From: Candidatus Rokuibacteriota bacterium
GTDB taxonomy: Bacteria; Methylomirabilota; Methylomirabilia; Rokubacteriales; JACOUJ01
NCBI GenBank assembly: GCA_016177865.1
Contig: JACOUJ010000239.1
Location: 1 to 38,386, forward strand
DNA: 38,386 nt
Direction of reading: 5' to 3'
Shown: positions 2,448-38,386 of the stretch, piece by piece
Numbering within the stretch: the stretch's first letter is position 1
How the letters are laid out: each line of letters begins with the position of its first letter
Program-made: the position numbers and the translations under genes
The notes under the pieces: generated by a model
What the model was told of the DNA's origin: nothing
The model's database searches: none
What the model saw: the letters and a program-made list of their open reading frames with translations, nothing else

Positions 2448-2452
2448 GAGCT

Positions 2453-11328: not shown

Positions 11329-12062
11329 GACGACTTCCGCCCCACGTACCAGAACGCGTGGGCCATCACGAGCGAGCCGCCGGGAACCATCTCGATGAGC
11401 CGGATCAGCCCCCGACTGTCCAGGATCCGCCCTAGCCGCGGGAAGCGGCGCGGCAGAAGGTAGACGCCAACACGCCGCAGGTGACGGATCTTCCGTTGCT
11501 CAAGCGCCCGGCAAACTTCAAACGGCGAGTCATGCCGGACCCGTGAGCGCCGGCCTCCGGCGATCTCCGAGAGTCGCCGGGCGAGCGCCGGAATTTCCAG
11601 TGCGTTGAGCGCCTCCACCACGAGGAGCCCCTCCGGGCGCAGGACTCGGATCATCTCGTCCAGCAACGGCCCGGGTCGGCTTACCGCCTGGAGCACCCCG
11701 ATGCAGACGACCAGATCGAAGCACTCGGGCGTAAACGGCAGTTCGTGACCATCCGCCGCCAGGTATCGGCCTTTTCGGCCCGGATCGGCTTCAACGGCGC
11801 GGCCGAGGCTCGGGAGCGCATAATCGATGCCGACCACAGAATGGCCCAGTTCTGCCAGGCGACGCACGTAGGTGCCGGCCCCGCATCCTAGCTCCAGGAC
11901 GCGGGAGCCCACTGGGAGCGCGAGATGGCCAATCAACTGCTCGAACAGGCTGAAACGGCGCGCGAGCCCCGCGGGGGACCAGCCCGAGACAAAATGCTCC
12001 TCCGCGTAGCTGCGGCCAAAGCGTTCGAAACGGGCGCGCCACTCTGCCTCGAAGATCGTCAT
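11325..12062 (-). CDS. class I SAM-dependent methyltransferase
   Basis: 245 aa. SAM motif I is VLELGCGAGTY and the post-I acidic residue is in VVGIDYA. ATGA overlaps on both sides. Confidence 0.8.
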   Translation of the reverse strand: MTIFEAEWRARFERFGRSYAEEHFVSGWSPAGLARRFSLFEQLIGHLALPVGSRVLELGCGAGTYVRRLAELGHSVVGIDYALPSLGRAVEADPGRKGRYLAADGHELPFTPECFDLVVCIGVLQAVSRPGPLLDEMIRVLRPEGLLVVEALNALEIPALARRLSEIAGGRRSRVRHDSPFEVCRALEQRKIRHLRRVGVYLLPRRFPRLGRILDSRGLIRLIEMVPGGSLVMAHAFWYVGRKSS

Positions 12063-13975
12063 GACCTCGGGGCTCCTTGCCCGGGCGCCTCATCCACGAA
12101 CGAGCGGTGCCACAATTCGAGGACGATGAGCGCCCAGATTCGGGCCGAGTGATCCCGCACTCTGGTCTGATGATCCTGCCAGAGCCGGCGCACTCCCTCG
12201 GGCCGCACATATCCGCGCGCGAGCGATCGCGGAGAGAGGAGCAGATCCGCCGCCATCTCTCGCAACTCGCCGCGGAGCCAGCTCGCCAGCGGGATCTCGA
12301 ACCCCTGCTTCGGCCGGTGGATCACAGACCGCGGCACGCGCCCTTCCAGATGACGCTTCAGAAGGTACTTCGAAGTGCGCCCTCGGTACTTCAGATCGGG
12401 CGGCACAGTGGCGGCAAACTCGATGACCTTGTGGTCGAGGAGCGGGGCACGGACCTCGAGCGAGTTCGCCATGCTCATCCGGTCGACCTTCACGAGGATG
12501 TCGTTGGCCAGCCAAGTCTTCAGGTCAACGTAGAGGAGTTGACTCAGCGAGTCGAGCCCGCGGACCCTCTCGAAGTGGCGGGCGAAGGCCGTGAAGGGAT
12601 CGTGGTCGGCGAGCTCACTTCTGAAATCGGCGGAGAGCAGCCGGGCCTTCTCGTCGTCCCGGAAGAGCGAGAGATCCGAGAAGTACGCGCGCTCCGGTGT
12701 CGTGCCGAGATTCTGAAGGAAGTAGCGGGCCCGGAGGGGACGCGGCAGCCAGTCCGCCTTTGGGTAGACCGCCCCGAGCGGAGCCATGACGCCTGTCCGA
12801 ACGGAGGTCGGTAGCCATCGACGGAGGCGCGCCTCCCAGCGGTGAAAGCCATAGCGACGCTGATACCCCGCGAAGACCTCATCGCCACCGTCACCCGAGA
12901 GGGCCACGGTGACCTGCTCGCGCGCCGCTCGAGACACATAGTACGTGGGAAGGGCCGACGAATCTGCGAAGGGTTCGTCCAGATGCCAGACGAGCCGCGG
13001 GAGCACGTCGACTGCCCGCGGCTCCACGAGGACCTCGTGGTGCTCGGCGCCCACGGCGGTGGCTACCGCTCGCGCATGGCCGAGCTCGCTGAAAGCCCGC
13101 TCGGAGAAGCCGACGCTGGTCGTCACCACCGGCCAGTTCGACAGACGCGCCATCATGTCCACCACGGCACTCGAGTCCACGCCGCCGCTCAGGAACGCGC
13201 CCAGGGGAACGTCGCTGACGAGCCGCACGCGAACGGCGTCGGCGAAGACCTCGGCGAACGCCTCTACAGTTTCGACTTCACTGCGACGCACCACCTCACC
13301 TCGGGGAACGTCCCAGTACTCGGCGATTCGTGGCGCGCCGCGCTCCCAAACGAGGTAATGGCCGGGCGGGAGCTGGATGACCCCCTGAAAGATGGTGGCT
13401 GGTGCCTGGACTGCGCCGAACGAGAAGTAGTCATCGAGCGATTCCGCGCTGACACCCCGCTTGAGGCTCGCATCCTGGAGCAGTGCTTTCAGCTCCGAGG
13501 CAAAACAGAGGCGCTCGCCGGCATGCGTGTAGTAGAGTGGCTTCTTACCCACCCGATCCCGCGCCAGCAGGAGCCGTCGCTCCGGCTCATCCCAGAGCGC
13601 GAACGCAAACATCCCTCGCAACCGAGCCACGCAGCCCACTCCGAACTCCTCGTAAGCATGGACGATCACCTCGGTGTCTGCGCGGGTGGTGAATCGGTGA
13701 CCGCGGCCCTCCAGCTCCGACCGCAGCTCGGGGAAATTGTAGATCTCTCCGTTGAGGATTACCGCCTTCGTGCGGTCCTCGTTGAACATTGGCTGATCAC
13801 CCGTGGCAAGGTCGATGATGCTGAGCCGCCGGTGGCCGAAACCGGCTCCACGCCACAGGTGAACACTCTCGGCGTCCGGCCCCCGGTGAGCCATGGCATC
13901 AGTCATGCGGCCCAGCAGCTCACGGGACACCGGGAACCCCGGGTCGGCGTGGACTATCCCCGCGATGCCACACAT
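12059..13975 (-). CDS. asparagine synthase-family glutamine amidotransferase (exosortase-associated amidotransferase type), paralog 1
   Basis: Start set at MCGIAGIVHADPG (ATG 13975-13973, Cys codon 13970-13972), because class II Ntn amidotransferases need Cys directly after Met. It has HRGPD and the PP-loop LSGGVDSSAVV. The track ORF extension to 14281 overlaps the methyltransferase gene out of frame. Confidence 0.9.
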   Translation of the reverse strand: MCGIAGIVHADPGFPVSRELLGRMTDAMAHRGPDAESVHLWRGAGFGHRRLSIIDLATGDQPMFNEDRTKAVILNGEIYNFPELRSELEGRGHRFTTRADTEVIVHAYEEFGVGCVARLRGMFAFALWDEPERRLLLARDRVGKKPLYYTHAGERLCFASELKALLQDASLKRGVSAESLDDYFSFGAVQAPATIFQGVIQLPPGHYLVWERGAPRIAEYWDVPRGEVVRRSEVETVEAFAEVFADAVRVRLVSDVPLGAFLSGGVDSSAVVDMMARLSNWPVVTTSVGFSERAFSELGHARAVATAVGAEHHEVLVEPRAVDVLPRLVWHLDEPFADSSALPTYYVSRAAREQVTVALSGDGGDEVFAGYQRRYGFHRWEARLRRWLPTSVRTGVMAPLGAVYPKADWLPRPLRARYFLQNLGTTPERAYFSDLSLFRDDEKARLLSADFRSELADHDPFTAFARHFERVRGLDSLSQLLYVDLKTWLANDILVKVDRMSMANSLEVRAPLLDHKVIEFAATVPPDLKYRGRTSKYLLKRHLEGRVPRSVIHRPKQGFEIPLASWLRGELREMAADLLLSPRSLARGYVRPEGVRRLWQDHQTRVRDHSARIWALIVLELWHRSFVDEAPGQGAPRS

Positions 13976-13977
13976 CC

Positions 13978-14700
13978 CTACTTCTTCTCCATCACCACGA
14001 GCCACGTGCTCTGAAGCTGAGTGAACCCGAGCGCCCGGACGATCTCGTCGTAAAGGATCCCCAGGCGGAACAGGGCAGGCGAGAACATCAGGTAGTACGG
14101 GTAGTGCTCGATAGCCTCGGTGCGGGTCAGCTCGAAGCCGGTGACGCGAGCAAGGTCCCGGGAGGCCCGAGCCGTGTTCGCGCGATAGCGGACGGGAAAG
14201 TGAGCGTACGCATCGCCGCCAAACACCTTCTGGAAATACACGTCTTTGAGCCACCCAGGGGTGAGCAGAGCAACGAGACACGAGTAGTAATATTTGTTCG
14301 GCGTCGTGAAGACGAGTCGTCCACCGGAGCGGAGCACCCTGCCGAATTCTTTAAAGGTCTCGACGGGGTGATCGAGGTGCTCGACGACAGAGCGCGAGAC
14401 AATCAGATCGACGCTCTGACTCCGTATCGGGAGGGATTCGAGGTTGCCGACGATCACCTTCGTGCGCCCGAGCACGTTCGGGGCCGGAGAGCATAAGTCG
14501 ACGCCGACTGCGAACGCAACCTTCGGGCCGTAGCGCGAGAGGAGCGGGAAGTCAGCACCGCATCCGGCGTCCAGAAGGACGTCCGAGGGTCGGGCGAGTG
14601 CGGCGGCCGTCGAATCGAGGAGCTCCTCGCGCGATGGGCCCCGGTAGTATCGCTGGATCAGTTTGCGGCACTTCTGTCGCCGGTCCAGGATCCCCATCAT
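13978..14700 (-). CDS. class I SAM-dependent methyltransferase (Methyltransf_11-like)
   Basis: 240 aa. Motif I is VLLDAGCGADF, followed by VGVDL and then LRSGGRLVFTTPN. Confidence 0.8.
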   Translation of the reverse strand: MMGILDRRQKCRKLIQRYYRGPSREELLDSTAAALARPSDVLLDAGCGADFPLLSRYGPKVAFAVGVDLCSPAPNVLGRTKVIVGNLESLPIRSQSVDLIVSRSVVEHLDHPVETFKEFGRVLRSGGRLVFTTPNKYYYSCLVALLTPGWLKDVYFQKVFGGDAYAHFPVRYRANTARASRDLARVTGFELTRTEAIEHYPYYLMFSPALFRLGILYDEIVRALGFTQLQSTWLVVMEKK

Positions 14701-15818
14701 CGAAAATTACCTCTGGCAAGGTCCAGGTAGAGATGGCGGTAGCATCCGGCCATGCGTTCGAGTCCGAACTCCTGCGTGGCCCGCTGCCGTCCGGCCTTGC
14801 CGTGCGCCGTCATGAGATGGGGGTCAGCGACGTAGGCTTCCAAGGCACGAGCAAGTGCCTGCCGGTCACCAACCGGCACGAGCGTTCCTGTCACCCCATC
14901 CTCCACCACCTCCGGATTCCCGCCGGTCCGCGTGGCGACGACGGGCAAGCCGGTCGCCATCGCCTCGAGCACCGTGTTCGAGATCCCTTCGGCGATGGAC
15001 GGAAGCGCGAAGATGTCAACACCTTTGAGCAGGAGCGGGACATCTGATCGCTCCCCGCAGAGATGCACGCGGCCTGCGACGTCTGGCTGCTGCGCCCGCG
15101 TCTCGAGGCTGGTCCGGCAGGGACCTTCACCAACGATGACGAGCGCCAGCGTCCGGCCCCGGTGGTCGAGCCGAGTAAAGGCCTCGATCAGGCCGAGCTG
15201 GTCCTTGACCGGGTCGAGTCGTCCTACGGTGCCGATCACGGTGACGCCGGGAGGCAAGCCGAGAGCCCGACGACCTGCGTCGCGAGCCTCTTCAGAAAAG
15301 CGGTTCACGTCGACGCCATTGTGGATCGTTTCAACTTTCGTCGCCGGGATGCCGACGGTCTCGACCAGCCAGCGGCGGAGGTCGCAGGAGACGGTGACGA
15401 ACCGGTTCACCAGCGGAGCCGAGCAGCGACGCAGGCGATTTCGCCAACCATTCAGACCCCACGGGTCGCCGGCCTCGCGCCCGTGCTCGCCGTGAACGAT
15501 GACGGGGGCCCCAGCCAGCCTGCCCGCGAGCACCGCGTCGAATGCCCCCCAGTTGCGCGAGTGAACGATGTCGGGCTCCAGGCGCCGAATAAGCGCAGCC
15601 AATCTCGTCAGTGCATGGAGGTCGATCCCGACCCGCTTGCCCAAGGAGATGGTGGTCACACCCGCAGGGAGGCGCGCCGCCATCCGTCCCACCGAGGTCA
15701 TTGCAATGACGGTGTGCCTGAAGCCTTCGTCGAGGGCAGTCATGAGGTTCACAACGCCGTTTTCCGTGCCGCCGACGTCGAGCGAGTGGAGAACGTGCAC
15801 GACGTGAAGCCGCCTCAC
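14697..15818 (-). CDS. GT4 glycosyltransferase, PEP-CTERM/EpsH1-system-associated sugar transferase type
   Basis: HVVHVLHSLDVGGTENGVVNLMTAL at the N-terminus is typical of that family. C-terminal motif is IAEGISNTVLEAMATGLPVVATRTGGNPEVVEDGVTGTLV. Preferred start is GTG 15818-15816 (MRRLHVVHVL), forming a GTGA overlap with the AsnB-2 stop. The track start at 15842 would overlap by 28 nt. Confidence 0.85.
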   Translation of the reverse strand: MRRLHVVHVLHSLDVGGTENGVVNLMTALDEGFRHTVIAMTSVGRMAARLPAGVTTISLGKRVGIDLHALTRLAALIRRLEPDIVHSRNWGAFDAVLAGRLAGAPVIVHGEHGREAGDPWGLNGWRNRLRRCSAPLVNRFVTVSCDLRRWLVETVGIPATKVETIHNGVDVNRFSEEARDAGRRALGLPPGVTVIGTVGRLDPVKDQLGLIEAFTRLDHRGRTLALVIVGEGPCRTSLETRAQQPDVAGRVHLCGERSDVPLLLKGVDIFALPSIAEGISNTVLEAMATGLPVVATRTGGNPEVVEDGVTGTLVPVGDRQALARALEAYVADPHLMTAHGKAGRQRATQEFGLERMAGCYRHLYLDLARGNFR

Positions 15819-17686
15819 CGGTCCCACCACCGACGAGCCCACTCCTCAAGACAGAGCAAGAGCCAGATCTGACTGGACCGCTCGCGCTTGCCGGTGCGAT
15901 GTTCCTCCAGCAGGGCCTCCACGGCGTGGGCATTGATGAGCCCTCGCTGGCGGGTCCGCCTGTCGACGAGGATCTCGCGAGCGTATCCGGCCAGCTCTCG
16001 CCGAAACCACGTCCCGATCGGCACGCCGAACCCCATCTTGCGTCGCCCGAGAATCTCGCTCGGCAGGTCCTCCGCCATGACCCCTTTGAGCACTGCCTTG
16101 CCAGCGCCGTTTCGCAGCTTGAGTCGGCTCGGCATTCTCGCCACGTACTCCATGAGGAGGTGATCCAAGAGCGGCACCCGGGTCTCGAGCGAGACCAGCA
16201 TGCTGGTCCGATCGATCTTGGTGAGGATGTCCTCGGGGAGGTAGGTCCGGACGTCCAGATACTGGAGCGTCGCCAGGTAGTCGGAGGCCCGCCCCTCCCG
16301 GACAAGTTGGCGAAACAGCGCCGGAGTCACAATCGGTGCGACGTGAGCTTGCGCGTCCGGGGTGAGAAGCCGGCGGAGTGTCCCCGTCCGTTGATACGTG
16401 ACCATCCGGAAGTAGCGCTCGGTCGGTTCCGAGCCCAACAGCTCCAGGTATCCTCGTCCCCGGGCGCCCGGGGCAAGCAGGCTGGCCGCCAGTCGAAAGA
16501 GCGGCCGTGCTATGGCACCCAGCGGATGGTCCAGGCGCTCGTGCCACCTCAGCGCCTGCAAGTAGCGCCCATAGCCAGCGAAGTTCTCGTCCCCTCCGTC
16601 GCCCGACAGCGCCACCGTCACATGTTCCCGGGTGATCTTGGATACGTAATAGGTCGGAACCGCGGAGCTGTCGGCGAAGGGCTCGTCGAACTGCCACATG
16701 AGGCGCGGCATTGCTTCGAGAGCATCCGGTTTCACCACAAACTCATAGTGATCGGTCCCGTAACGACGAGCCACGGCTCTGGCATACCGGAGCTCGTCGA
16801 AATCCGCCTCGTCGAAGCCGATCGAGAACGTGCGGACCGGCTCCCCCACCTCCTGCGACATGAGCGCGACCACCGTGCTCGAATCCATTCCCCCGCTCAG
16901 AAAGGCACCGATCGGCACGTCGCTCACGAGATGGCTTCGGACCGAGTCCTGGAGACGCCAGCGGAGGCCTTCGACCCACTCCGCCTCTGTGCGAGTTTCG
17001 TCCGGGAGGAACTGGAGGTCCCAGTAACGCCGGACCTCGGGCTCACCGCGATCCAGATCGAGCACCAGGTACGACGCCGGGGCGAGTTTGCGGATCCCGC
17101 GAAAGATCGTCCGTGGGCTGGGAATGTACGAGAAGGTCAGGTAGTCCCTCAGAGCCTCCCAGTCCAGGTCTCTCGGCACCGACGGATCCTGAAGGATCGC
17201 TTTGAGCTCGGAGGCGAAGAGGAGTCGCCGCCCGTCCCAGGCATAGACGAGCGGCTTGATCCCGACCCGGTCGCGAGCGAGGAACAGGCGTCGGCGCCGT
17301 CCGTCCCAAATGGCGAAGGCGAACATGCCCCTGAGCCGGCCGAGACACTCCACCCCGTATGCCTCGTACGCGCGCAGAATAACCTCGCTGTCCGAAGTGG
17401 TCCGGAAGACATGCCCGTGGACCTCGAGTTCCCGGCGCAGCTCGCGGAAGTTATAGATCTCTCCGTTGAACACCAGCGCCACAGACCCGTCCTCGTTCGC
17501 CATGGGTTGATGGCCGCTGACGAGATCGATGATCGCAAGCCGCCGGTGGCCCAGCCCGACAGGCCTCCGAATCAGATAACCCTCCCCATCCGGCCCGCGG
17601 TGAGCGAGGATTGAGGTCATCGCCCGCAGGAGCTGCTCCCCTACGGGCTTTCCGTCCTGCCTGAGGACACCCGCGATCCCACACAT
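15815..17686 (-). CDS. asparagine synthase-family glutamine amidotransferase, paralog 2
   Basis: 623 aa. MCGIAGVLRQDG (Cys codon 17681-17683), HRGPD, and PP-loop LSGGMDSSTVV. It is colinear with paralog 1. Confidence 0.9.
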   Translation of the reverse strand: MCGIAGVLRQDGKPVGEQLLRAMTSILAHRGPDGEGYLIRRPVGLGHRRLAIIDLVSGHQPMANEDGSVALVFNGEIYNFRELRRELEVHGHVFRTTSDSEVILRAYEAYGVECLGRLRGMFAFAIWDGRRRRLFLARDRVGIKPLVYAWDGRRLLFASELKAILQDPSVPRDLDWEALRDYLTFSYIPSPRTIFRGIRKLAPASYLVLDLDRGEPEVRRYWDLQFLPDETRTEAEWVEGLRWRLQDSVRSHLVSDVPIGAFLSGGMDSSTVVALMSQEVGEPVRTFSIGFDEADFDELRYARAVARRYGTDHYEFVVKPDALEAMPRLMWQFDEPFADSSAVPTYYVSKITREHVTVALSGDGGDENFAGYGRYLQALRWHERLDHPLGAIARPLFRLAASLLAPGARGRGYLELLGSEPTERYFRMVTYQRTGTLRRLLTPDAQAHVAPIVTPALFRQLVREGRASDYLATLQYLDVRTYLPEDILTKIDRTSMLVSLETRVPLLDHLLMEYVARMPSRLKLRNGAGKAVLKGVMAEDLPSEILGRRKMGFGVPIGTWFRRELAGYAREILVDRRTRQRGLINAHAVEALLEEHRTGKRERSSQIWLLLCLEEWARRWWDR

Positions 17687-28811: not shown

Positions 28812-30254
28812 TCACCACGCCGGTCGAGCTTCACCGGCCCTCCTGAACATGGTGGCTTCCGCAAGGATGCGCTCCGCCAGGAATCTCCCGACCACGTGAT
28901 GGGCCTGCTCGTTCGGGTGACCATCCCATCGACTCACCCGCAAATCCCAGTAGGAAAACCCATCAAAGACACGACCCATAGGCCACACAGATATCCTCCG
29001 CCCGAGGCAGGCTTCGACGAATCGTTGGTAGCGTGCTTCGTAACGGTCATCATGACGAACCGCGATGTCGAACGGAACGAGGCGGAAAGCGGCACCGAAG
29101 GACTGCGCCTTCGCAAAGATCTCCTCGAGGACGTCAAGGTGCCGTGACAGGAGATCTGGGTTGGCGTATGACGCGAAGAAGTGGTCAGGACGCGCAGCTT
29201 CAGGGTTCATCCGCCTGGCTCGGCGGTAACGAAGAAGTAGCTGATCAAACAGATGCGAGTTGAGCATCAGGACACGATGCAGTCGAAACCGGCTCCAGAA
29301 CGAGGGGGCTCCGAATGGCGTATCTCCTAACGGCAGTGGAACCAAGTGCTCGATGTCGTTAAAGTAATAAGCCAGGATCACGAGATCGGGCTGCAACCAA
29401 CTGAGTTGCCCCAGGGTTTGCAGGTGGTCCACGGAATGGGTGCCTTTGACGCCAGCGTTGAACACCCTCGCGTGGCGGAACTGCCCGGTCCGGCCCAGTT
29501 GCTCGGCAAGAACGCTAGTAAAGCGATCGGCGGGGTTGGTCACTCCGGTGCCGTAGGTTATTGAGTCTCCAAGCACCAAGATCCGAAACTCGTCAGGTTG
29601 CGTCCGCTGTTCGAACTCTCCGCCCCGGAAGCCCAAGCTGTTGGGCGCTTCATATCGCACATGCCACATTCTCGTGGGTTTCGTCGGCTCGCCCTGGGGC
29701 TGGAGCCAAACGATGTTAGCGACCCGGGTGGCACCTTCGGCGATGAGATACGTAGCCGCTATGGACGCCACGATCACAAGTCCCCCGGCTACTCGGTACG
29801 CTCCACGAGCCTTGGCATTGAACGCCCGGCTGATGAGAAAGTGGAGCATCGCCAGGCCCAGAGAGACCTGAGCCAGATACTCCAGGAGAACCCCAGCTGT
29901 CTGCGTGGCGCCAAAGAACTCACCGACAAACAACCGCCTCACGTGAAATGGATCGACGCGGTACTGCGTCAACAGGCTCGCCCCCCAGCCTGCGGCGGCG
30001 GTGCCGAAAAGAAATCGATATCTAGCGCCACTGAGATCCCCGGCATCGAGGGCCCTCGAACCCGCCAGACTCTGCCGAGCGGCCAGGGCAGTCGCCACTG
30101 CGAAACTCAGGACGCTCGCCAGGATCACGGCCACCCACGGAAGCGAGTACCGGTTCAACACCGCAGGGTTGAACGACTCGTTAAGGAGTGTACCCAAGGC
30201 AACACATCCCAACGCAAACGCCCACAGCCACGGCGTGAGAAGTGCCATCGTCAT
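28812..30254 (-). CDS. membrane protein with 5 N-terminal TM helices fused to an SGNH/GDSL hydrolase domain
   Basis: 480 aa. TM region is about residues 1-190. SGNH blocks are ILVLGDSITYGTG (Ser), NAGVKGT (Gly), YYFNDI (Asn) and a non-canonical final block RWDGHPN (the Asp-His spacing differs from DxxH). Confidence 0.75.
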   Translation of the reverse strand: MTMALLTPWLWAFALGCVALGTLLNESFNPAVLNRYSLPWVAVILASVLSFAVATALAARQSLAGSRALDAGDLSGARYRFLFGTAAAGWGASLLTQYRVDPFHVRRLFVGEFFGATQTAGVLLEYLAQVSLGLAMLHFLISRAFNAKARGAYRVAGGLVIVASIAATYLIAEGATRVANIVWLQPQGEPTKPTRMWHVRYEAPNSLGFRGGEFEQRTQPDEFRILVLGDSITYGTGVTNPADRFTSVLAEQLGRTGQFRHARVFNAGVKGTHSVDHLQTLGQLSWLQPDLVILAYYFNDIEHLVPLPLGDTPFGAPSFWSRFRLHRVLMLNSHLFDQLLLRYRRARRMNPEAARPDHFFASYANPDLLSRHLDVLEEIFAKAQSFGAAFRLVPFDIAVRHDDRYEARYQRFVEACLGRRISVWPMGRVFDGFSYWDLRVSRWDGHPNEQAHHVVGRFLAERILAEATMFRRAGEARPAW

Positions 30255-31441
30255 CTCCTGCCAATCATCGGTCGCAGAAACTCAGCCGTCGCTCGAGCCA
30301 GCGCCTCGCTTCCTGCTGCTGTCGTGTGGACATGATCCTCGAAGAGCTCGCTGCGGCCAGTGAATATACCCGACAGATCAAGTACTGGCACGTCGTTAGC
30401 CTGCGCCACCTTGAAGATGGCGCGGTCAGAATCCTCGAAGGCGCGAAGAAGCGCCTCAGGGGACAACTCTACTAACTCGTACGCGATCTTCTCCTTCTCG
30501 GCCGGAGTGTTTGACTGCGTCACCAGTCGCGCCTGGGTCGCGAGGATTCCTCTGGCCCTGATATGCCTAGCGGCAGACATGATGAGGTGCAAGTTCAGCC
30601 CGTACTGGCGGGGCCCGTAGGCGGAATACGTGCTGGCGTAGGTGTTGACGTCGGTTACTACGCCCTCCGACCCAGGCTTGCCGATGCGCCAAAACAGGTA
30701 CTGCGACCGGAGCCGCACGTACAGCTCGGAGTAACTCAGCAGGCGATCCGCTGGCCCCCAATAGTAAATGAACGGGTTCGAGACCATGGGGCGCCCGCCA
30801 TCGTTGGTCACCATGGCCGGGCGCTGAGTCCGCAGTAACGTGGTCTGCGAGTCGAGCCGGTGAAAGTACTTGATGTCGTTCCAGGCGTGGTACACCAGGA
30901 CATAGTCCGGCTCGAACGTCCAGAGCTCCGAGTAGAGACGTCCCAGAGAATCGAACGTGGCGTGCCCGGGGGTGCCAGCATTGATGACTTCAACATTCGT
31001 GTGCCCTTGAGCCCGCAGGTACTCTTCTATCAGGTGGGGCCAATCTCGTCCCTCCTTGGCGTACATGTCGAAGGCTGCCGAACCACCGAGGACCACAAGA
31101 CGGATCACCCCGGGCGGCTTCGGCACCTCGAAAGACCGACCGCGATAGCCGCGTTCGCTGATTTCGACGTAGCCGCTCGGGGTCGCTCGCTTCTTCTGCA
31201 CCATTCGGGGAAAGGCGTGACGCGCGAAGAGCGTCGCCTCGTATTCGAGTGACTTGGCCCGGTGGGTGTCGGGGCTCGCGTGGCTTCGAGTCAGCCTCAG
31301 ATAGGCTTCGCCGACGGTGACCATCACCGCCGCCGTTAGCCCGATGCTCACTGACGCGAGCCACAGCTTTGCGCGGAGCGAATACGTTGGCCCCCCGATC
31401 CTCGTTATCGGACGCGGCCGCCAGGCTGTTTCCACTCCCAT
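30251..31441 (-). CDS. single-pass membrane-anchored SGNH-like hydrolase
   Basis: 396 aa. TM anchor is LWLASVSIGLTAAVMVTVG. Blocks are RLVVLGGSAAFDMY (GGS in place of GDS), NAGTPGH, YHAWNDIKY and EDHVHTT (DxxH). ATGA overlap with the downstream SGNH gene. Confidence 0.7.
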   Translation of the reverse strand: MGVETAWRPRPITRIGGPTYSLRAKLWLASVSIGLTAAVMVTVGEAYLRLTRSHASPDTHRAKSLEYEATLFARHAFPRMVQKKRATPSGYVEISERGYRGRSFEVPKPPGVIRLVVLGGSAAFDMYAKEGRDWPHLIEEYLRAQGHTNVEVINAGTPGHATFDSLGRLYSELWTFEPDYVLVYHAWNDIKYFHRLDSQTTLLRTQRPAMVTNDGGRPMVSNPFIYYWGPADRLLSYSELYVRLRSQYLFWRIGKPGSEGVVTDVNTYASTYSAYGPRQYGLNLHLIMSAARHIRARGILATQARLVTQSNTPAEKEKIAYELVELSPEALLRAFEDSDRAIFKVAQANDVPVLDLSGIFTGRSELFEDHVHTTAAGSEALARATAEFLRPMIGRR

Positions 31442-31445
31442 GGGC

Positions 31446-31616
31446 TCAGAACAGTGTGTAGATGAACGGTGCGACTGCTGAACTTTGAGCGAAGAGGATC
31501 AGACCACCCAGGAGCAAAAGCATGAAGACCATGGGGATCATCCACCAGAGCTTCGCCGCCCATAGGAATTCCAGCAACTCCCCCGCGATCGAGAACTTCA
31601 TGAGCAGGCTCTTCAT
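31446..31616 (-). CDS. DUF5989 / SxtK-like 56-aa membrane peptide (not in supplied ORF track)
   Basis: Hand translation of the minus strand gives MKSLLMKFSIAGELLEFLWAAKLWWMIPMVFMLLLLGGLILFAQSSAVAPFIYTLF*. The single TM segment and the C-terminal SAxAPFIYTLF match my memory of the small protein family found next to NodU/CmcH carbamoyltransferases. It starts 15 nt after the carbamoyltransferase stop, with a purine-rich GGGGGCGAG upstream. Confidence 0.7.
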   Translation of the reverse strand: MKSLLMKFSIAGELLEFLWAAKLWWMIPMVFMLLLLGGLILFAQSSAVAPFIYTLF

Positions 31617-31631
31617 CGCGTTCTCGCCCCC

Positions 31632-33407
31632 CTATTTCTCGATGATGTGTTGGCCGAGGACCAGGACGTCCATGCCGCTTCGGCTGAACGTGCTGAACGC
31701 CTCCGCCGGCGAGTTGACGATCGGCTCTCCCTTCAGATTGAAGGACGTGTTCAGCACGACCGGAACCCCCGTGGCCTCGCCAAACGTCTGAATCAACCGG
31801 TGGTAGCGTGGTGCGGTCTCGCGGTCCACGGTTTGAAGTCGTGCCGACCCGTCCACGTGGGTGATGGCTGGCACGCGATCTCGCGCCCCGTCCTTTACGC
31901 CCACGACGTAAAGCATGTACCGCGCGGGATAGTGCCGCGCCGGCTCCGCCAAGTCGAAGAAGTCCGCCGCCCGCTCCATAAGTACCGAGGGCGCGAAGGG
32001 TCGGAATGGCTCGCGAAACTTGATCTTCGTGTTGACGATGTCCTTCATCGCCGGGTCGCGCGGATCCGCGAGGATGCTGCGGTTCCCGAGCGCGCGCGGT
32101 CCCCATTCAAACCGTCCCTGAAACCATCCAACGACCCTGCCCTGCTGAAGCGCGTCCACGACGCGCCCGAGCAGTGCATCATCATTCTCGACGCGCGTGT
32201 GCGCGATATTCTGGCTGCGCAGAAACGCGTCGATTTCGCCGGCGCTGTACTCCTGTCCCCAGCAGGCGTGACGCATGACAAACTGGCGTGGCTTCCCCAG
32301 GACCATGTGATAGCCGTACAGCGCCGCGCCGACAGCGCCACCGCCATCTCCCGCAGCGGGCTGGATGAAGATCTCCTCGAACGCTGTCTCCCTGAGGATC
32401 CGGCCGTTTGCCACGCTGTTGAGGGCCACACCACCTGCCATGCAGAGGTGCTTCAGGCCTGTTTCCCGATGTAGGTGGCAGGCCATCTTCAGCAGCACCT
32501 CTTCGGTGACCGCCTGAATGCTCGCGGCGATATCCGCATAGCGCTGGTTCTCCCGAGCCAGGCGGTCGTAGGCGGCCGGCTTCTCGCCAAAGTAGGACGG
32601 GTACCCGCTCGAGGGTGTGAAGAAGTGGGCCTTCGGATCACGCGGCGGCCCGAACACATCGACGAAGCGGTCGTCGTACGTCGCGTAGGTCGATTGGTGA
32701 AACGAGAAGTACTCCATGTTAAGGTGGAAGCTGCCGTCGGCCTCCTGACCAATCAGCTTCCACACCTTGTCCGCGTACCGGGGTTCGCCAAACGGCGCCA
32801 TACCCATCACCTTGTACTCGCCTTCATTCACCTCGAACCCCAAAAAGGCTGTGAAGGCGCTGTATAGCAAGCCGAGGGAATGGGGGAACCGAATCTCGCG
32901 GCAAATCTTGATCTCGCTTCCTCGACCGGTGCCATACGTCGCCGTCGCCCATTCACCGACGCCGTCTACAGTCAAGATCGCCGCCTCCTCAAAGGGCGAG
33001 CAAAAGAAGGCGCTCGCGGCGTGCGAGAGGTGGTGGTCGCTGAACAGGATCTTGGACTCCGGGACACGGAGCGTTTCTTTGATGAGGCTCTTGATCCAGA
33101 GCTTCTCCGTAAACCACGCAACCAACGACTCCTGAAACACCTTCCGCGACCTCGGGAAGGTCTGCATCGTGGACTGCAGAATCCGCTCGAACTTCAGGAA
33201 TGGTTTTTCGAAAAAGACGACCAGATCCAGCTCCTCGCCTCGAATCCGACCTGCACGCAAGCAAAACTCGATCGCATTGGCCGGATACCTGTAATCGTGT
33301 TTCTTCCGCGTGAAGCGTTCCTCCTCTGCCGCAGCGACGATCTCGCCATCCCGGAGAAGGGCCGCAGCCGAATCGTGAAAGAAGCACGAGATCCCCATGA
33401 TGTTCAT
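31632..33407 (-). CDS. carbamoyltransferase, NodU/CmcH family
   Basis: 591 aa. The N-terminus MNIMGISCFFHDSAAALLRDGEIVAAAEEERFTRKKHD is the family hallmark. Length and the C-terminal LNTSFNLKGEPIV motif are consistent. Confidence 0.9.
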   Translation of the reverse strand: MNIMGISCFFHDSAAALLRDGEIVAAAEEERFTRKKHDYRYPANAIEFCLRAGRIRGEELDLVVFFEKPFLKFERILQSTMQTFPRSRKVFQESLVAWFTEKLWIKSLIKETLRVPESKILFSDHHLSHAASAFFCSPFEEAAILTVDGVGEWATATYGTGRGSEIKICREIRFPHSLGLLYSAFTAFLGFEVNEGEYKVMGMAPFGEPRYADKVWKLIGQEADGSFHLNMEYFSFHQSTYATYDDRFVDVFGPPRDPKAHFFTPSSGYPSYFGEKPAAYDRLARENQRYADIAASIQAVTEEVLLKMACHLHRETGLKHLCMAGGVALNSVANGRILRETAFEEIFIQPAAGDGGGAVGAALYGYHMVLGKPRQFVMRHACWGQEYSAGEIDAFLRSQNIAHTRVENDDALLGRVVDALQQGRVVGWFQGRFEWGPRALGNRSILADPRDPAMKDIVNTKIKFREPFRPFAPSVLMERAADFFDLAEPARHYPARYMLYVVGVKDGARDRVPAITHVDGSARLQTVDRETAPRYHRLIQTFGEATGVPVVLNTSFNLKGEPIVNSPAEAFSTFSRSGMDVLVLGQHIIEK

Positions 33408-33408
33408 G

Positions 33409-33642
33409 CTAGAACTGCCTCCTCGCGAGCGTCAGCGGGTCCGCGTCAGCACCCGGCCGCGCCACCCAGCCGTTGGCCGCTCCGGGGTGCAGCCGCAGCG
33501 GGTCACCGAGCACTTTCACGCCCAGGGCGAATGGCCCGAACACCGTGAAGTAGAAGACAAACAGCAGCGCACGCGCTTGAAGGTCCGCAATCCTCCGGCC
33601 GAGCACCTGCCACCGAGTCCAGATCACCTTGAGCACACGCAT
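33409..33642 (-). CDS. short SxtJ-like membrane protein (77 aa; corresponds only to the C-terminal half of typical SxtJ-family proteins)
   Basis: ATG 33642-33640 is preceded by AAGGGAGAG. The product is MRVLKVIWTRWQVLGRRIADLQARALLFVFYFTVFGPFALGVKVLGDPLRLHPGAANGWVARPGADADPLTLARRQF. The W-T-R..LG...hydrophobic helix..G-D-P-L-R-L....W..R....QF pattern resembles SxtJ C-termini from memory. The stop lies 1 nt before the carbamoyltransferase ATG. Confidence 0.5.
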   Translation of the reverse strand: MRVLKVIWTRWQVLGRRIADLQARALLFVFYFTVFGPFALGVKVLGDPLRLHPGAANGWVARPGADADPLTLARRQF

Positions 33643-33662
33643 CGGGGATCTCTCCCTTCGCC

Positions 33663-34703
33663 TCAGGCCCTCTTCCGGCCGATCATGGTGAAAAAGCCAC
33701 CTTCTCGCCCCCCGGTGAGAAGCATGGCGGCCTGCACGATGGCCCGATCGACGGCCGTGCCTCGCGGGTTTGGCTCGAACAATCTCTCCCCGGGGGAAAA
33801 CGACTCGCTTGCGACGCACTTCGGTATGCTGTTCACGAATTCGACGCTCGACTGGTCGAACCACCGCAGCACCTCGCCAAAGGTATGCTTCGATTCATGC
33901 GGATGCTTATACTGATCCCTGAACCAAGCCCGCCTTCTCGCGTCATTGAGGGTCTCGGTCCTCAGCCGTGGATCGAGGGACGTCAGCCTATCCCCAGCCA
34001 CTCGAAAGATAAGGCGTCGGATGTCGGTCGTGAGTCTCCCGTACCTGTTATAGAGTCCAACGACGACGAAACCGCCCTTCTTCAGAGAGGGCAAAAGAGC
34101 CTGGAACCCGGCGAAGGGATCAGCGGTGTGGTGCAACACACCGTTGCAGATCACAAAATCAAAGACCTCCGGTCGAAACACTGGACGGAAGAGGTTCATC
34201 TGAACGAAGCAGACATTCTCAAGACCATGTTGCTCCTCGAACGCGTGGCCCAGCCTCAGAGAGTTCACGCACAGATCTGTGGCAAAGACGCTTCGTCCCC
34301 ATGTCAATCCAAGGAAATTGCTCAGCTGACCCGTGCCGCAACCACATTCGAGGACCTTCGAGCCATGCGCGATCTGCCCGCTCAAGAGCCGAGCGAAGAC
34401 TCCATTCTCGGCCTTTGCTCGGAGGCTCTCCGGGGAGTCCAAGTCGTCGTAACCAGGAAAGGGCGTCTCCTCATAAAAGGCCTTCACGAGATCTGTCACA
34501 TCGGCCTTGGAACTGCGGCCGGTGGGCCAGAATAACAAGGGAATGCCTTGATCGCACGCGAACACACGCTTGCACGCTGCACATTCCATCGTCGAATGGT
34601 CGTCGGGCACTTTCAACCGTCCACCGCATACCGGACACATGAAGATGTCCAAGTGGCGACGGATGAGCTCAGGAATGACAGCGGTCTCGTCCGTGAGTTT
34701 CAT
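33663..34703 (-). CDS. SAM-dependent methyltransferase with N-terminal Trm112-like zinc ribbon
   Basis: 346 aa. Zinc ribbon is CPVCGGRL...MECAACKRVF. SAM motif I is VLECGCGTGQL, followed by ATDL and VICNGVLHH. Confidence 0.8.
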   Translation of the reverse strand: MKLTDETAVIPELIRRHLDIFMCPVCGGRLKVPDDHSTMECAACKRVFACDQGIPLLFWPTGRSSKADVTDLVKAFYEETPFPGYDDLDSPESLRAKAENGVFARLLSGQIAHGSKVLECGCGTGQLSNFLGLTWGRSVFATDLCVNSLRLGHAFEEQHGLENVCFVQMNLFRPVFRPEVFDFVICNGVLHHTADPFAGFQALLPSLKKGGFVVVGLYNRYGRLTTDIRRLIFRVAGDRLTSLDPRLRTETLNDARRRAWFRDQYKHPHESKHTFGEVLRWFDQSSVEFVNSIPKCVASESFSPGERLFEPNPRGTAVDRAIVQAAMLLTGGREGGFFTMIGRKRA

Positions 34704-34712
34704 CAGGTCCCG

Positions 34713-35750
34713 CTACAGCGCCATCCGATACCACGCGAGCTTCAGCGCGAAAGTCGGGACGTCATGTTCCCACGGTTGCCCTCGCCGGAGTTCCCACGGC
34801 GATGTCCTTCGAGTGTTGATGCCGAAGCGCGCGCTGACCGCGCACGTGAACCCCGCCTCGCGGACCAGGCGCACTACTGCCGCGGTGTAGTCTCCGGATT
34901 GCCCGTTTGGGTAGGCAAAAGCGCGAGGCCTGTGGCCGCACGCTGACTCGATCATCGCGCGGGAGCCCTCGATCTCCGACCGAACCCGCTCGAGGCTGAC
35001 GCGCGAGAGGATCGGGTGGTTCACCGTGTGGGCACCGATGGCGAACCCCAGCCCCATCAGAGCGTGAACATCGTCCCAACCGAGCATGAGGCCCTTAAAG
35101 TTCCGCTGCTCCGTTACCCCGAGACTTTCGAGCAACCCGTCCACAGTGCGCCGCAGCTCTTCGTCCTGAAGGCGCTTGAGCGCGTCGAGCGTTCGCTGAA
35201 GGCCGCGGACTCGGTCTCCGTCACTAGCCAGGCTCATCGTTTCGCCCCACGGTGTGGCGATGAACGTGGCCTTCGTCAGCTTGAACGCCATCGCGAGCCG
35301 ATCGAACCACGGAACCTCGGCGGTACCGATGAAGCCCGTTGCGAGGAACACGCTGGCGGGCGCTCGGTATTTCGTCAGGATCGGTGCGACATGCGTCAAG
35401 ACATCCCGATAGCCGTCATCGAAAGTGATCGCGAGAGCGTTTCGCGGGAGTCCGCCACTGCGCATCCGCTCCACCAGTTCTTCCAAGATGAGCACGCGGT
35501 AGGTGCGAGCGACGAAGCGCATCTGCCGCTCGAAAACCTCGGTCGGGACCGACGGGAAGAATGGGTCACGATTATCATCGACTCGGTGGTACACGAGGAT
35601 CGGGAAAGCCGGATACCGGCGATACGACAATCCTCCCGGACCTCCTAAAGCCGCATAGTCTGAAAATCTCGACAGGCCGCCGACCGCTCCCGATTTGTAG
35701 AGTCCGGCGGCCAAAGCTCGAACGATGGTCGCTCGCGCCCGGCCTCTCAT
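34713..35750 (-). CDS. polysaccharide deacetylase (NodB homology domain, CE4)
   Basis: Start at MRGRARATIV (ATG 35750-35748, sharing 1 nt with the upstream TGA). NodB motifs are ITFDDGYRD (Asp-Asp) and IGAHTVNHP (H-x-x-x-H metal ligands). Confidence 0.85.
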   Translation of the reverse strand: MRGRARATIVRALAAGLYKSGAVGGLSRFSDYAALGGPGGLSYRRYPAFPILVYHRVDDNRDPFFPSVPTEVFERQMRFVARTYRVLILEELVERMRSGGLPRNALAITFDDGYRDVLTHVAPILTKYRAPASVFLATGFIGTAEVPWFDRLAMAFKLTKATFIATPWGETMSLASDGDRVRGLQRTLDALKRLQDEELRRTVDGLLESLGVTEQRNFKGLMLGWDDVHALMGLGFAIGAHTVNHPILSRVSLERVRSEIEGSRAMIESACGHRPRAFAYPNGQSGDYTAAVVRLVREAGFTCAVSARFGINTRRTSPWELRRGQPWEHDVPTFALKLAWYRMAL

Positions 35751-37606
35751 CAGACACCCACTCCATTCGCGTGCTGACGGTGCCAGAGCTCGAGCATCAA
35801 CAGTATCCACAGGAGGCTTCCGTAGTATGGTGTGCCATCGGCTTCGTGTAGCCGCACGAGGTCGCGAATGCCCTCCTGCCGGAGATATTTCTGCACGTGG
35901 GCGCCCGGTGAGAGCAGGCTCTCACGAAGGAGCTGGCGGAACCCGGGATCACTCTTGAGCCACGCGCTCACGGGCACGCCAAAACCGTGTTTGCGTTTGG
36001 CGAGGACTTCGGCGGGTATGAGGTTTCGGAAAGCGCGTTTGAAGAGATACCGCTTCTCGAAGCGCCTGACTTTGTAGCACGCCGGCAGGGTGCCGGTGAA
36101 CTCCGCCAACAAATGATCAAGCATGGGGAACCGGACATCAATTCCCGCGAGCTCGGCCGCGCGCGTCACCTTCAAGAGGTCGCCGTCCCCGATGGTCAAC
36201 TTCAAGTCCAGGTAGAGCAGTCGGTTCAGCTCACTGGTCGCTTGCGCCGAGTCTAAATGCTGCTGGGCGACCTTCCAGGGGGCCTCGCGATCCACCATCC
36301 GGGCAAACTCGGGCGTGAGGAGCCGGAAGCCATCCTGGCCCATGAAGAACTCATGGAAGTAGAACCGGCGGGGGGTTGGGAGATTGGCCCGGTGCACATA
36401 GCGCTGAGCCCGGCCGAGCAGGGAAGCGTCCCCATCGGGGAGCCAGGCTAACAGTGGCTCGAGAATTGAACGCCGGAGCCCGCCGGGAATCCGCTGGTAC
36501 GCCACAAGGATCCGATCCGTCCGGTAACGCTCGTTGCCCCCGAACAGCTCATCACCCCCGTCCCCACCCAGCAACCGAGTCATCCCGCGGTCGCGAGCCA
36601 GTTGCGCGCACGCATACGTCGCGACCGACGAGTCGTTTCCGAACGGCTCGTCATGCGCCTCAATGAGGCGCGGCAATGTGGACAGGGCCCTTTCCGGGGT
36701 GAGTATCGCGGTCCCGTGCGCCGCGGCAAAGTGCCGGGCCGTCAGCGTGGCGTAGTGGAGCTCGTTGTAGCGAGGCTCCCGGAAGCCGATCGAGAACGCG
36801 TGGACGCGCTCTCCGGTTGTCTTCGTCATGAGACCGACGATAGTGCTGCTGTCGGTCCCACCGCTCAGGAAGGCGCCGGTCTCCTTTGCCGCAGCTCCGT
36901 GGAGGGACACGGCCACCGCATCTTCGACCATTCGAAATGTCGCGGCGGCCGCCTCACGGACTCCGACTGGCCGTTCGGGATACGCCAGATCCCAATAGCG
37001 CGCGATCGTCGGCTCCGCGTTCCGGAGCACGAGGGTGTGGCCGGGCGGAAGCCGCCGAACTCGGGCAAAGGCTGAGTAGGGGGCGGGGACGAAGCCGAAG
37101 TTCAGGTATTGGTACACCGCCGTGGGATCGACTTCGGCCGACAGTTCTGGCAGTGCGAGAAGGGGGCTCGGCCGGGATGCGAAGGTAAAGCCTTCCGGGG
37201 TCCTCACGTAGTAGAGCCGCTTGACCCCGAAGCGGTCGACCGCCAGCAGAAGCCGATGGAACCGACGGTCCCAGAGGGCCAGGGCAAAGGCCCCCCGGAG
37301 CCTCGCGATGAAGGCGGGGCCGTACGTTCTATAGAGCGTCGTCAGGAGCCTGTCCGAGCGGCCATCGCCACGAGCGGCCAGGGCGTGCAGTTCTGGCAGG
37401 TTTGTGAGATCCAGGTCGGCGAGCGCCCAGACCCGCTCCGTCAAATCCAAACCTCCTGGCTCGATGCACGAGAAGAACCCGACATGCCCTCGACTGGCGC
37501 ACACCGGCTGCCGCACGCCGGCAATCCGGCGCGCCATAGCTTGCAAGAGAGAGTCCGGCGCCGGTCGTGCGGGATCGCGGAAGACGACACCGCCGATTAG
37601 ACGCAT
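35750..37606 (-). CDS. asparagine synthase-family protein, paralog 3, lacking the N-terminal Cys nucleophile (synthetase/PP-loop domain intact)
   Basis: The N-terminus is MRLIGGVVFRDP (residue 2 is Arg, codon 37601-37603) where paralogs 1 and 2 have MCGIAG. There is no HRGPD motif. The PP-loop LSGGTDSSTIV and the C-terminal domain are conserved. An alternative ATG at 37630 also yields no Cys. Confidence 0.8.
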   Translation of the reverse strand: MRLIGGVVFRDPARPAPDSLLQAMARRIAGVRQPVCASRGHVGFFSCIEPGGLDLTERVWALADLDLTNLPELHALAARGDGRSDRLLTTLYRTYGPAFIARLRGAFALALWDRRFHRLLLAVDRFGVKRLYYVRTPEGFTFASRPSPLLALPELSAEVDPTAVYQYLNFGFVPAPYSAFARVRRLPPGHTLVLRNAEPTIARYWDLAYPERPVGVREAAAATFRMVEDAVAVSLHGAAAKETGAFLSGGTDSSTIVGLMTKTTGERVHAFSIGFREPRYNELHYATLTARHFAAAHGTAILTPERALSTLPRLIEAHDEPFGNDSSVATYACAQLARDRGMTRLLGGDGGDELFGGNERYRTDRILVAYQRIPGGLRRSILEPLLAWLPDGDASLLGRAQRYVHRANLPTPRRFYFHEFFMGQDGFRLLTPEFARMVDREAPWKVAQQHLDSAQATSELNRLLYLDLKLTIGDGDLLKVTRAAELAGIDVRFPMLDHLLAEFTGTLPACYKVRRFEKRYLFKRAFRNLIPAEVLAKRKHGFGVPVSAWLKSDPGFRQLLRESLLSPGAHVQKYLRQEGIRDLVRLHEADGTPYYGSLLWILLMLELWHRQHANGVGV

Positions 37607-38386
37607 GCCGCTCTCGCGCGAGCCCGCCACCGCCGCAGGAGCGGAATCAGCCGAGTCTCGATTGAGTGGAGAAAGCGCCCGTACGGCGTGGCAGCGTACA
37701 CCTCAAGCCAGACGGACTCCCGCGCACCGGTCGCCCACCGGAGCTTGTACGTATTGCCCCCCGGGCCCATGTCGTACTCGCCCACGTCGCGCCGATCAAA
37801 GATGGATTGCATGATCCGGAGATTCAGGACGGCTCCGGGCGAAAGGCTCGCAAGCGCGGCATCGAAATCAGCACGCAACGCGTGCAGCCGGCCGTTGGAC
37901 CGGATCTGGTACTCGGTGGCCACGGCGCGCCCGTCCAGCCGAAGGATCCAGAGATGCAGCCAGCCGTTCGCGCTAGCACGCTGTGTGAGCTCCCGGAAAA
38001 ACCTGGGCATCCCGAGCATCGTCGCCATGCCCACTCCCCGCGGGCCCTTCCAGCTTTGCCGCGAGACTTCCATGACCTCGGCAAAAACCGGTCCCTCCGG
38101 GTCAACCTCGCGGTACTCCTCTACCGCCACCATCCCGCTCTTTCCGAGTCGGTTCTCGATATTTCGGCAGGTCTTCCTGAAGCGTTGGGTTTTGTGGCGG
38201 AAGAAGTCTCCCCAGGTTCCGGCGATCTCTACGTACGGCGACTGCTCACGGCCGGCCACCCGCCACAGCAGCCGACCGGGAAGGGCCGCCTCGAGCGCCT
38301 GCAGCGTCGCCGAGTCCCCCGGAAGCTTTCGGAGCGAAAGCACGTCCCAGTCCGAGCGGGCTCGCAACGCCTCCAGAAGAGCCACG
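37597..38386 (-). CDS. CelD/BcsL-like GNAT (Acetyltransf_6, FemAB-like fold) protein; 5' end beyond the window
   Basis: The open frame runs to the window edge (codon phase ends at 38385). Supporting sequence: ...FFRHKTQRFRKTCRNIENRL..., LDGRAVATEYQIRSNGRLHALRADFDAALASLSPGAVL and YDMGPGGNTYKLRWA, which are typical of CelD-like GNATs. Confidence 0.7.
   Translation of the reverse strand, partial: VALLEALRARSDWDVLSLRKLPGDSATLQALEAALPGRLLWRVAGREQSPYVEIAGTWGDFFRHKTQRFRKTCRNIENRLGKSGMVAVEEYREVDPEGPVFAEVMEVSRQSWKGPRGVGMATMLGMPRFFRELTQRASANGWLHLWILRLDGRAVATEYQIRSNGRLHALRADFDAALASLSPGAVLNLRIMQSIFDRRDVGEYDMGPGGNTYKLRWATGARESVWLEVYAATPYGRFLHSIETRLIPLLRRWRARARAACV

Follow-up and report, generated by a model that had tools for sequence, protein, structure and literature searches.

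AsnB3, the third asparagine synthetase B (AsnB) paralog in the stretch of DNA analyzed here, has lost the entire glutamine site of its family while keeping an intact ATP-dependent synthetase domain. The stretch (the window, 38.4 kb) makes up nearly all of a 38,458-nt contig from a metagenome-assembled genome of Candidatus Rokubacteria (Methylomirabilota), and every gene in it lies on the minus strand. AsnB3 (MBI1893841.1, 618 aa; 35750-37606, minus strand) is annotated as a 'hypothetical protein' and consists of a degenerate N-terminal nucleophile (Ntn) domain followed by the intact PP-loop synthetase domain. Across phyla its gene is locked to those of a motif-complete carbohydrate esterase family 4 (CE4) de-N-acetylase and a putatively VimA-related transferase of the GCN5-related N-acetyltransferase type (GNAT2). 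We put at about even the chance that AsnB3 is an active, glutamine-independent AsnB-family enzyme within a coupled trio forming a second tailoring module of the Wbp/Vim kind.

The AsnB3 gene starts at ATG 37606 and opens ATG CGT CTA ATC GGC GGT (MRLIGG); intact paralogs 1 and 2 of the window begin MCGIAG. The GNAT2 open reading frame (ORF) ends ...AACV-TAA at 37599-37597, which gives a 10-nt overlap with the AsnB3 start. The TGA stop of AsnB3 occupies 35752-35750, and base 35750 is common to the ATG of the CE4 gene, a 1-nt overlap. A preliminary description of the window, made from its letters, had reported the aberrant start, the loss of the HRGPD motif and both overlaps, and all were borne out on direct reading and, for the motifs, by alignment.

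Residues were mapped by HMMER alignment of paralog 1 to Escherichia coli AsnB (1ct9), which placed Cys1, Arg49, Asn74-Gly75-Glu76 and Asp98. Aligned with paralogs 1 and 2, AsnB3 lacks Cys1 and the motifs HRGPD, GHRRL(A/S)IID, NGEIYN and (S/A)D(S/T)EV, all four of which are present in both paralogs. The Arg49 loop has been removed by a nine-residue deletion, and the Asp98 position holds Ser. In place of NGEIYN, which carries Asn74-Gly75-Glu76 of the glutamine site, the translation reads DLDLTN (residues 64-69; 37400-37417, minus strand), with Asn74 replaced by Asp, Gly75 by Leu and Glu76 by Asp in E. coli AsnB numbering. The degenerate former glutaminase domain, delimited by the paralog alignment, the E. 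coli AsnB mapping and column counts, runs from residue 1 to about residue 210 (36977-37606, minus strand). Because Cys1, the Arg49 loop, Asn74, Glu76 and Asp98 are all absent, the translated protein is shown to be incapable of binding or hydrolyzing glutamine by the Ntn mechanism. The preliminary description had concluded, from the start and the missing HRGPD, that glutamine cannot be hydrolyzed in this way. Alignment with E. coli AsnB, TsnB9 and the intact paralogs of the window confirmed the loss of Cys1 and of the glutamine-binding residues throughout, and the contrary case it had named, an N-domain retaining those residues, was not found.

Profile searches gave a consistent picture. Pfam matched the full Asn_synthase domain of AsnB3 (4.7e-74), and GATase_7 only at profile positions 37-122, the back half. 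With TIGR01536, the glutamine-hydrolyzing AsnB equivalog, AsnB3 scored 249.7 bits, under the cutoff of 267.1 (paralogs 1 and 2, 519 and 514 bits). With TIGR03108, the XrtA/PEP-CTERM amidotransferase, it scored 335 bits against a cutoff of 816.9, the match spanning only residues 72-610. Paralog 1 (15815-17686, minus strand) scored 704 bits with TIGR03108 and had a full GATase_7 match. The true start of paralog 2 (12059-13975, minus strand) is ATG 13975; the mechanical ORF runs 102 codons further 5' to GTG 14281, overlapping a methyltransferase gene at 13978-14700.

The synthetase half of AsnB3 has the PP-loop SGGTDSS, the ATP pyrophosphatase signature, at residues 248-254 (36845-36865, minus strand). 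The segment DGGDELF at residues 349-355 (36542-36562, minus strand) aligns with EGSDEVF of E. coli AsnB, which contains Glu348; paralogs 1 and 2 likewise have Asp at the Glu348 position.

Among 5.8 billion proteins searched, full-length relatives of AsnB3 (53-65% identity) formed at least 120 clusters from independent assemblies, nearly all beginning M-x-L-[IL]-G-G. In 120 homologs the position of Cys1 is taken by R, S, T, P and other residues, with Cys in only 8 and never N-terminal. The Arg49 loop is deleted in all 120. Asn74 and Glu76 are each replaced by Asp in 112 of the 120, Gly75 is Leu or Met, and Asp98 is unconserved. A new motif, D64-x-D66-L-x-N69, is present at the old site (D64 and D66 in 112/120 each, N69 in 117/120). 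In SGGTDSS the S, G, G, D and first following S are found in 120/120, the Thr in 119 and the last Ser in 118; GDGGDE is invariant in all 120. In the C-domain, dozens of residues specific to the family show no or almost no variation, including N324, N358, R378, R414, D474, D476 and R519. Column conservation was 0.42 for residues 1-60, 0.65 for residues 61-210 and 0.77 for the synthetase domain, the highest in the protein. These columns show the predicted adenylating domain to be under strong purifying selection, in keeping with the preliminary description, which had read the kept SGGTDSS as leaving the enzyme able to adenylate a carboxylate.

A genome scan using one genome per species gave 80 loci spanning Methylomirabilota, Acidobacteriota, Desulfobacterales and Beta- and Gammaproteobacteria, with cultured strains among them. 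The cultured carriers include Desulfospira joergensenii DSM 10085 (L034), Noviherbaspirillum denitrificans (L056), Massilia frigida (L061) and Janthinobacterium sp. BJB426 (L076). Scan loci, look-up loci and the window together made up a set of 84 AsnB3-like sequences (individual loci are numbered L001 onward). In a neighbor-joining tree without bootstrap the 84 were monophyletic and apart from 25 intact paralogs, and the Cys-less Methylomirabilota group was monophyletic and nested within the acidobacterial-type group. In this wider clade 81/84 sequences have no Arg49 loop, 83/84 no Asn74 and 84/84 no Asp98; by contrast, all six residues are retained in each of the 24 intact paralogs in the same alignment (paralogs 1 and 2 of the window and those from the genome loci). 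Since the site is absent clade-wide and the Cys-less Methylomirabilota are nested in this way, the tree indicates that the glutamine site was already lost in the ancestor of the AsnB3 clade and that Cys went later, in the lineage of the window. Relatives of AsnB3 are labelled 'asparagine synthase (glutamine-hydrolysing)', a name contradicted by their sequences.

An AlphaFold model of AsnB3 built on the family alignment had a predicted local distance difference test score (pLDDT) of 94.6 and a predicted template modeling score (pTM) of 0.94, with the N-domain confidently folded. The closest solved structures were TsnB9, E. coli AsnB, human ASNS, beta-lactam synthetase and carbapenam synthetase, and Foldseek matches to 1ct9, 6gq3 and 7ylz (E 1e-20 to 1e-29) gave a two-domain AsnB fold. 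The hydroxyamidotransferase TsnB9 (7ylz) was the best PDB match by structure (TMq 0.76) and by sequence (2.1e-29); beta-lactam synthetase and carbapenam synthetase (1jgt and 1q15) gave TMq values of 0.55-0.59. AsnB3 has the overall fold and PP-loop chemistry of E. coli AsnB, human ASNS and TsnB9, but these hydrolyze glutamine (glutamate gamma-hydroxamate in TsnB9) with an N-terminal Cys and channel the nucleophile through a tunnel, and AsnB3 is without such a site. By alignment to E. coli AsnB, D64, D66 and N69 would sit where Asn74 and Glu76 bound the glutamine amide, and in the model the former glutaminase domain appears as a folded shell carrying the new conserved Asp-x-Asp-Leu-x-Asn motif.

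GNAT2 (37597-38385, minus strand) is a predicted acyl- or aminoacyltransferase of the CelD/FemAB/VimA-related family (PF13480, Acetyltransf_6, 1.3e-25). Its 5' end is cut by the end of the window and contig; 262 aa are left, and about 105 N-terminal residues are missing relative to homologs of 366-368 aa. A full-length ortholog is encoded at 8904-10010 of locus L001. GNAT2 gave no match to TIGR03019, and a profile made from the full-length ortholog also retrieved TIGR03019-type proteins. The CE4 de-N-acetylase (345 aa; 34713-35750, minus strand; PF01522, 2.7e-24) has the catalytic motifs TFDDGY, HTVNHP (HxxxH) and AYPNG (RxxxYP-type) in alignments to 6dq3 and 3vus. It has no evident signal peptide, and its best NCBIfam match was PgaB at 61 bits, far under the cutoff.

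The preliminary description had asked whether Cys-less AsnB, a GNAT and CE4 form a recurrent cassette, and the set with a PF13480 GNAT does recur in Methylomirabilota and Acidobacteriota, GNAT-CE4 fusions included. In Methylomirabilota-type loci CE4 lies directly downstream of AsnB3 in 8/8 and GNAT2 directly upstream in 6/8, with stop/start overlaps as in the window. CE4 is downstream of the AsnB3-like gene in 18/23 Acidobacteriota-type loci, and an intact AsnB is directly upstream of it in 18/25. Six acidobacterial genomes encode GNAT2 and CE4 as a single ORF of about 750 aa directly downstream of the AsnB3-like gene (L012, 7842-10112; also L013, L017, L018, L019 and L026), with PF13480 and PF01522 confirmed by Pfam in two. 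Such a single-ORF (Rosetta stone) fusion links two of the three parts. Linkage is looser in Desulfobacterales (2/5) and in Proteobacteria, where a convergent CE4 was found in 9/40 and GNAT2 in 4/41. AsnB3-CE4 is the most constant gene pair. The intact paralogs of the window are followed by a glycosyltransferase and a methyltransferase, with no adjoining CE4. A GlmS-like gene (GATase and SIS domains) lies directly after CE4 in L003 (12876-14714) and probably in L005, L006 and L008, which suggests a dedicated amino-sugar supply for the module.

One close counterpart is the XrtA/PEP-CTERM set of TIGR03006, TIGR03019 and TIGR03108, found in the same type of locus. Just upstream of the trio in relatives are a TIGR03006 XrtA deacetylase (363 > 276) and a TIGR03019 FemAB-family protein (405 > 260), with a UDP-GlcNAc 2-epimerase between their genes; in the window this region falls beyond the contig end. 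Both sets stand side by side in L001, L003, L007 and others. Each trio protein is paralogous to one member of the set, but all are under the curated cutoffs and the amidotransferase paralog of the trio is without a glutaminase. GNAT2 and CE4 are homologous to the TIGR03019 and TIGR03006 types: they belong to the same Pfam families and their profiles retrieve the curated types. From this homology the trio is, as judged by sequence, a second, paralogous copy of the deacetylase/FemAB/amidotransferase set of XrtA loci.

The same three enzyme classes (CE4, GNAT and AsnB homolog) make up the Wbp/Vim pathway of Porphyromonas gingivalis and Tannerella forsythia. There VimE (CE4) is a putative deacetylase that takes off the 2-N-acetyl group; the choice between Ser and Gly as the added residue depends on VimA, a match to pepcterm_femAB; and WbpS, an AsnB homolog identified genetically as an amidotransferase, makes the uronamide (Veith et al. 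2020, PMC7468200). In P. gingivalis the three build an N-aminoacyl glucuronamide, and the product of the pathway is the linking sugar that carries type IX secretion system (T9SS) cargo (PMC7468200). The same gene set was seen beside exosortases, and an amino-acid-modified sugar was speculated there (Veith et al. 2020, PMC7468200). The present trio differs in that AsnB3 has no glutamine-site residue at all (WbpS and VimA being compared by description only), in its translational coupling here and the fusion of two of its parts in Acidobacteriota, and in its host system, which is exosortase/PEP-CTERM and not T9SS.

AsnB3 probably builds an unusual amide on a sugar. In the mechanism we propose, CE4 would deacetylate a cytoplasmic sugar precursor, N-acetylated and probably uronic, to uncover an amine, and GNAT2, as a putative VimA/FemAB relative, would re-acylate or aminoacylate an amine. 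The PP-loop domain of AsnB3 would adenylate a carboxylate with ATP, and the acyl-AMP would be captured by a nitrogen nucleophile not derived from glutamine hydrolysis, so forming the amide; the trio as a whole would tailor the exopolysaccharide of the exosortase/PEP-CTERM system. The catalytic activity, the substrate class, the cytoplasmic site and the nucleophile are all inferred. A nucleotide- or lipid-linked cytoplasmic precursor may be proposed because AsnB3 needs ATP, CE4 has no evident export signal, and CE4 is fused in some genomes to a GNAT that needs a cytoplasmic donor. ATP use together with the fusion points to chemistry on such a precursor and argues against cross-linking of the finished polymer. 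The substrate may be an amino-uronic sugar, since a WecB-type epimerase occurs in the loci of relatives and a UDP-sugar dehydrogenase in L003.

The nucleophile preferred here is an organic amine borne by the substrate, either the sugar amine exposed by CE4 or an amino acid, and not ammonia; we rate its probability a little short of even. It is favored because the lactam-forming members of the AsnB family, which lack Cys1, use substrate amines, because the old glutamine site now carries a conserved new acidic motif, because the partner CE4 makes an amine, and because two intact amidotransferases are already in the locus. Beta-lactam synthetase, carbapenam synthetase and the lasso cyclases are without Cys1. 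Like AsnB3 they have the two-domain AsnB fold with the N-domain kept, and they use ATP to form an acyl adenylate, which a substrate amine then attacks. AsnB3 differs from them in keeping the GDGGDE core of the intact paralogs and in lying in a polysaccharide locus: no precursor-peptide, clavam or carbapenem genes were found around it, all neighbors being polysaccharide-synthesis genes. Lactam formation by asparagine synthetase (AS) family enzymes is reported for beta-lactam synthetases and lasso peptide cyclases (PMC13060819).

Several observations weigh against the proposed mechanism and its preferred nucleophile. The GDGGDE core of AsnB3, with Asp at the Glu348 position, is that of the intact paralogs, and there is no change of the beta-lactam-synthetase kind. 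Free ammonia also serves as a substrate for canonical asparagine synthetases (PMC13060819), so a lost glutaminase does not by itself call for a new nucleophile. Many proteobacterial members have no GNAT2 and CE4 nearby. A uronic-acid-forming dehydrogenase was absent from the window and seen only in the relative L003. Acidobacterial and proteobacterial members have a strongly conserved M-S-G-[IL]-C-G-[IW] start with a non-N-terminal Cys at residue 5 (for example, within L010-L084, L024 5797-7692, L043 5770-7617 and L050 5968-7821); one possibility is a short auto-processed propeptide ahead of this conserved Cys. A few members of L010-L084 could start M-C (MKGMCGW, MTMCGIA); Arg49, Asn74 and Asp98 are missing in all of them.

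In the most serious alternative, AsnB3 is an ammonia-dependent amidotransferase that makes a primary amide from NH3/NH4+ (for example uronic acid to uronamide, as WbpS does) and the N-domain is a structural remnant. E. coli AsnB Cys1 mutants retain ammonia-dependent activity, the synthetase core motifs of AsnB3 are the same as those of paralogs 1 and 2, and residues 1-60 are as poorly conserved as a remnant would be. Canonical AS enzymes and PesC take ammonia in place of glutamine (PMC13060819). With two intact glutamine-dependent paralogs in the locus, however, a third simple amidase needs a reason; D64-x-D66-L-x-N69 is conserved exactly at the Asn74/Glu76 site, the many family-specific invariant C-domain residues point to a different substrate, and this reading leaves unexplained why the gene is so tightly, and often translationally, coupled to that of CE4, which produces an amine. 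We consider free ammonia as the nucleophile, and this reading with it, unlikely though well worth keeping in mind. A lactam or cross-link synthetase would instead close an intramolecular or inter-residue amide with a carboxylate of the same or a neighboring sugar after CE4 had freed the sugar amine, a sharper form of the amide-linked cross-link suggested in the preliminary description. The constancy of the AsnB3-CE4 pair suits it, as does the Cys-less N-domain common to the structural neighbors 1jgt and 1q15. It gives GNAT2 no role, however, a cytoplasmic ATP enzyme cannot cross-link an exported polymer, and Asp is kept at the Glu348 equivalent as in ordinary paralogs. A special affinity of AsnB3 to lasso or macrolactam cyclases was also rejected, NF033535 giving 152 bits (cutoff 525) against 284 and 271 for the intact paralogs; with NF033561 it scored 75 bits (cutoff 300), marginally above the 67 of the paralogs. 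This alternative is given a small probability.

That AsnB3 is a non-catalytic pseudoenzyme, scaffolding or regulating an intact AsnB or the CE4/GNAT pair, is very improbable. AsnB enzymes are dimers, and an intact AsnB lies immediately upstream in most Acidobacteriota-type loci, but the invariance of the PP-loop and GDGGDE in 120/120 and the C-domain column identity of 0.77 argue for selection on catalysis and not on the fold alone. The chance that a normal Met-Cys amidotransferase is hidden by a misplaced start or by an error of sequencing or assembly, the objection the preliminary description had raised against itself, is next to nil. Its sole hint is that CGT (Arg2) is one transition from TGT (Cys). 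The AsnB3 frame is open for just 32 codons 5' of the ATG, and this stretch (GVRCHAVRALSPLNRDSADSAPAAVAGSRESG) contains one Cys and zero Met, so no in-frame upstream start yields Met-Cys; no Ntn start was found in the other frames either. The Arg49-loop deletion and the changes at Asn74, Glu76 and Asp98 are independent of the start codon, and with the same state in at least 120 homolog clusters from independent assemblies the artefact reading was refuted by the family data.

The window itself is an exosortase/PEP-CTERM exopolysaccharide locus. It encodes a PrsK histidine kinase (2453-4570, minus strand; TIGR02916, 433.7 > 300), an exosortase-domain ORF (1596-2504, minus strand; TIGR02602, 150.6 > 105.55), an exosortase-A-associated O-antigen-ligase-like protein (TIGR03097, 439 > 188), stp2/stp3-type glycosyltransferases (TIGR04063, 490.6 > 442) and Wzm/Wzt-like ABC transporter subunits, in addition to the two intact AsnB paralogs. 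An EpsI/DUF3485 domain forms residues 317-516 of ORF 955-2520 (minus strand), in another frame than the exosortase-domain ORF 1596-2504; the region is either a fused XrtW-like exosortase-EpsI gene with a real or assembly frameshift, or two overlapping genes.

Other features were noted in the window. A further cassette at 4567-8904 (minus strand) includes a FemAB-family protein (PF02388 and PF13480), a formyltransferase-like protein, a DVU_1553-like AMP-dependent ligase and a protein weakly similar to the C-domain of squalene-hopene cyclase. A DVU_1556-like methyltransferase is encoded at 11325-12062. A conserved module at 31446-34703 (minus strand) comprises a methyltransferase with a Trm112-type zinc ribbon, a 78-aa ORF without family match, a NodU/CmcH-type carbamoyltransferase and a 56-aa DUF5989 membrane protein; its gene order is repeated in L001 and L004. 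Two neighboring SGNH/GDSL-type hydrolase or acyltransferase-like proteins without NCBIfam family lie at 28812-31441 (minus strand). One may have N-terminal membrane segments, judged by eye, and both are candidates for O-acyl modification of the polysaccharide. Midway through the locus, the region 19013-23300 (minus strand) encodes an 839-aa Kelch beta-propeller-repeat protein and two ORFs (21217-22545 and 22542-23300) with no Pfam or NCBIfam match.

AsnB homologs with a dead glutaminase have precedents in beta-lactam synthetase, carbapenam synthetase and the lasso cyclases. For the deacetylase/FemAB/AsnB logic the precedent is Wbp/Vim, and curated models of these gene families exist for XrtA loci. 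What is new is a large cross-phylum clade of glutaminase-dead AsnB enzymes, un- or misannotated, that is dedicated to polysaccharide loci and coupled or fused with its own CE4 and GNAT paralogs; no direct report of a Cys-less AsnB in polysaccharide or exosortase loci was found in the literature searches made.

Bacteria of soil, sediment and wastewater widely carry exosortase/PEP-CTERM systems. A speculative and rather improbable extension is that the trio makes, without glutamine, the acceptor to which exosortase attaches PEP-CTERM proteins, an amino sugar with an amide-linked amino acid or an inter-residue amide, the old pocket (Asp-x-Asp-Leu-x-Asn) having been repurposed to bind an organic amine. 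If so, it would be the exosortase counterpart of the T9SS linking sugar, and AsnB3 would be the first amine ligase of the AsnB family acting on carbohydrates. The genetic tie of AsnB3 to a deacetylase and a VimA-like transferase leads to a concrete prediction, that an amide is formed on a de-N-acetylated sugar precursor with ATP but without glutamine. If this is true, the small group of AsnB-family enzymes that have abandoned glutamine would gain a carbohydrate-modifying branch.

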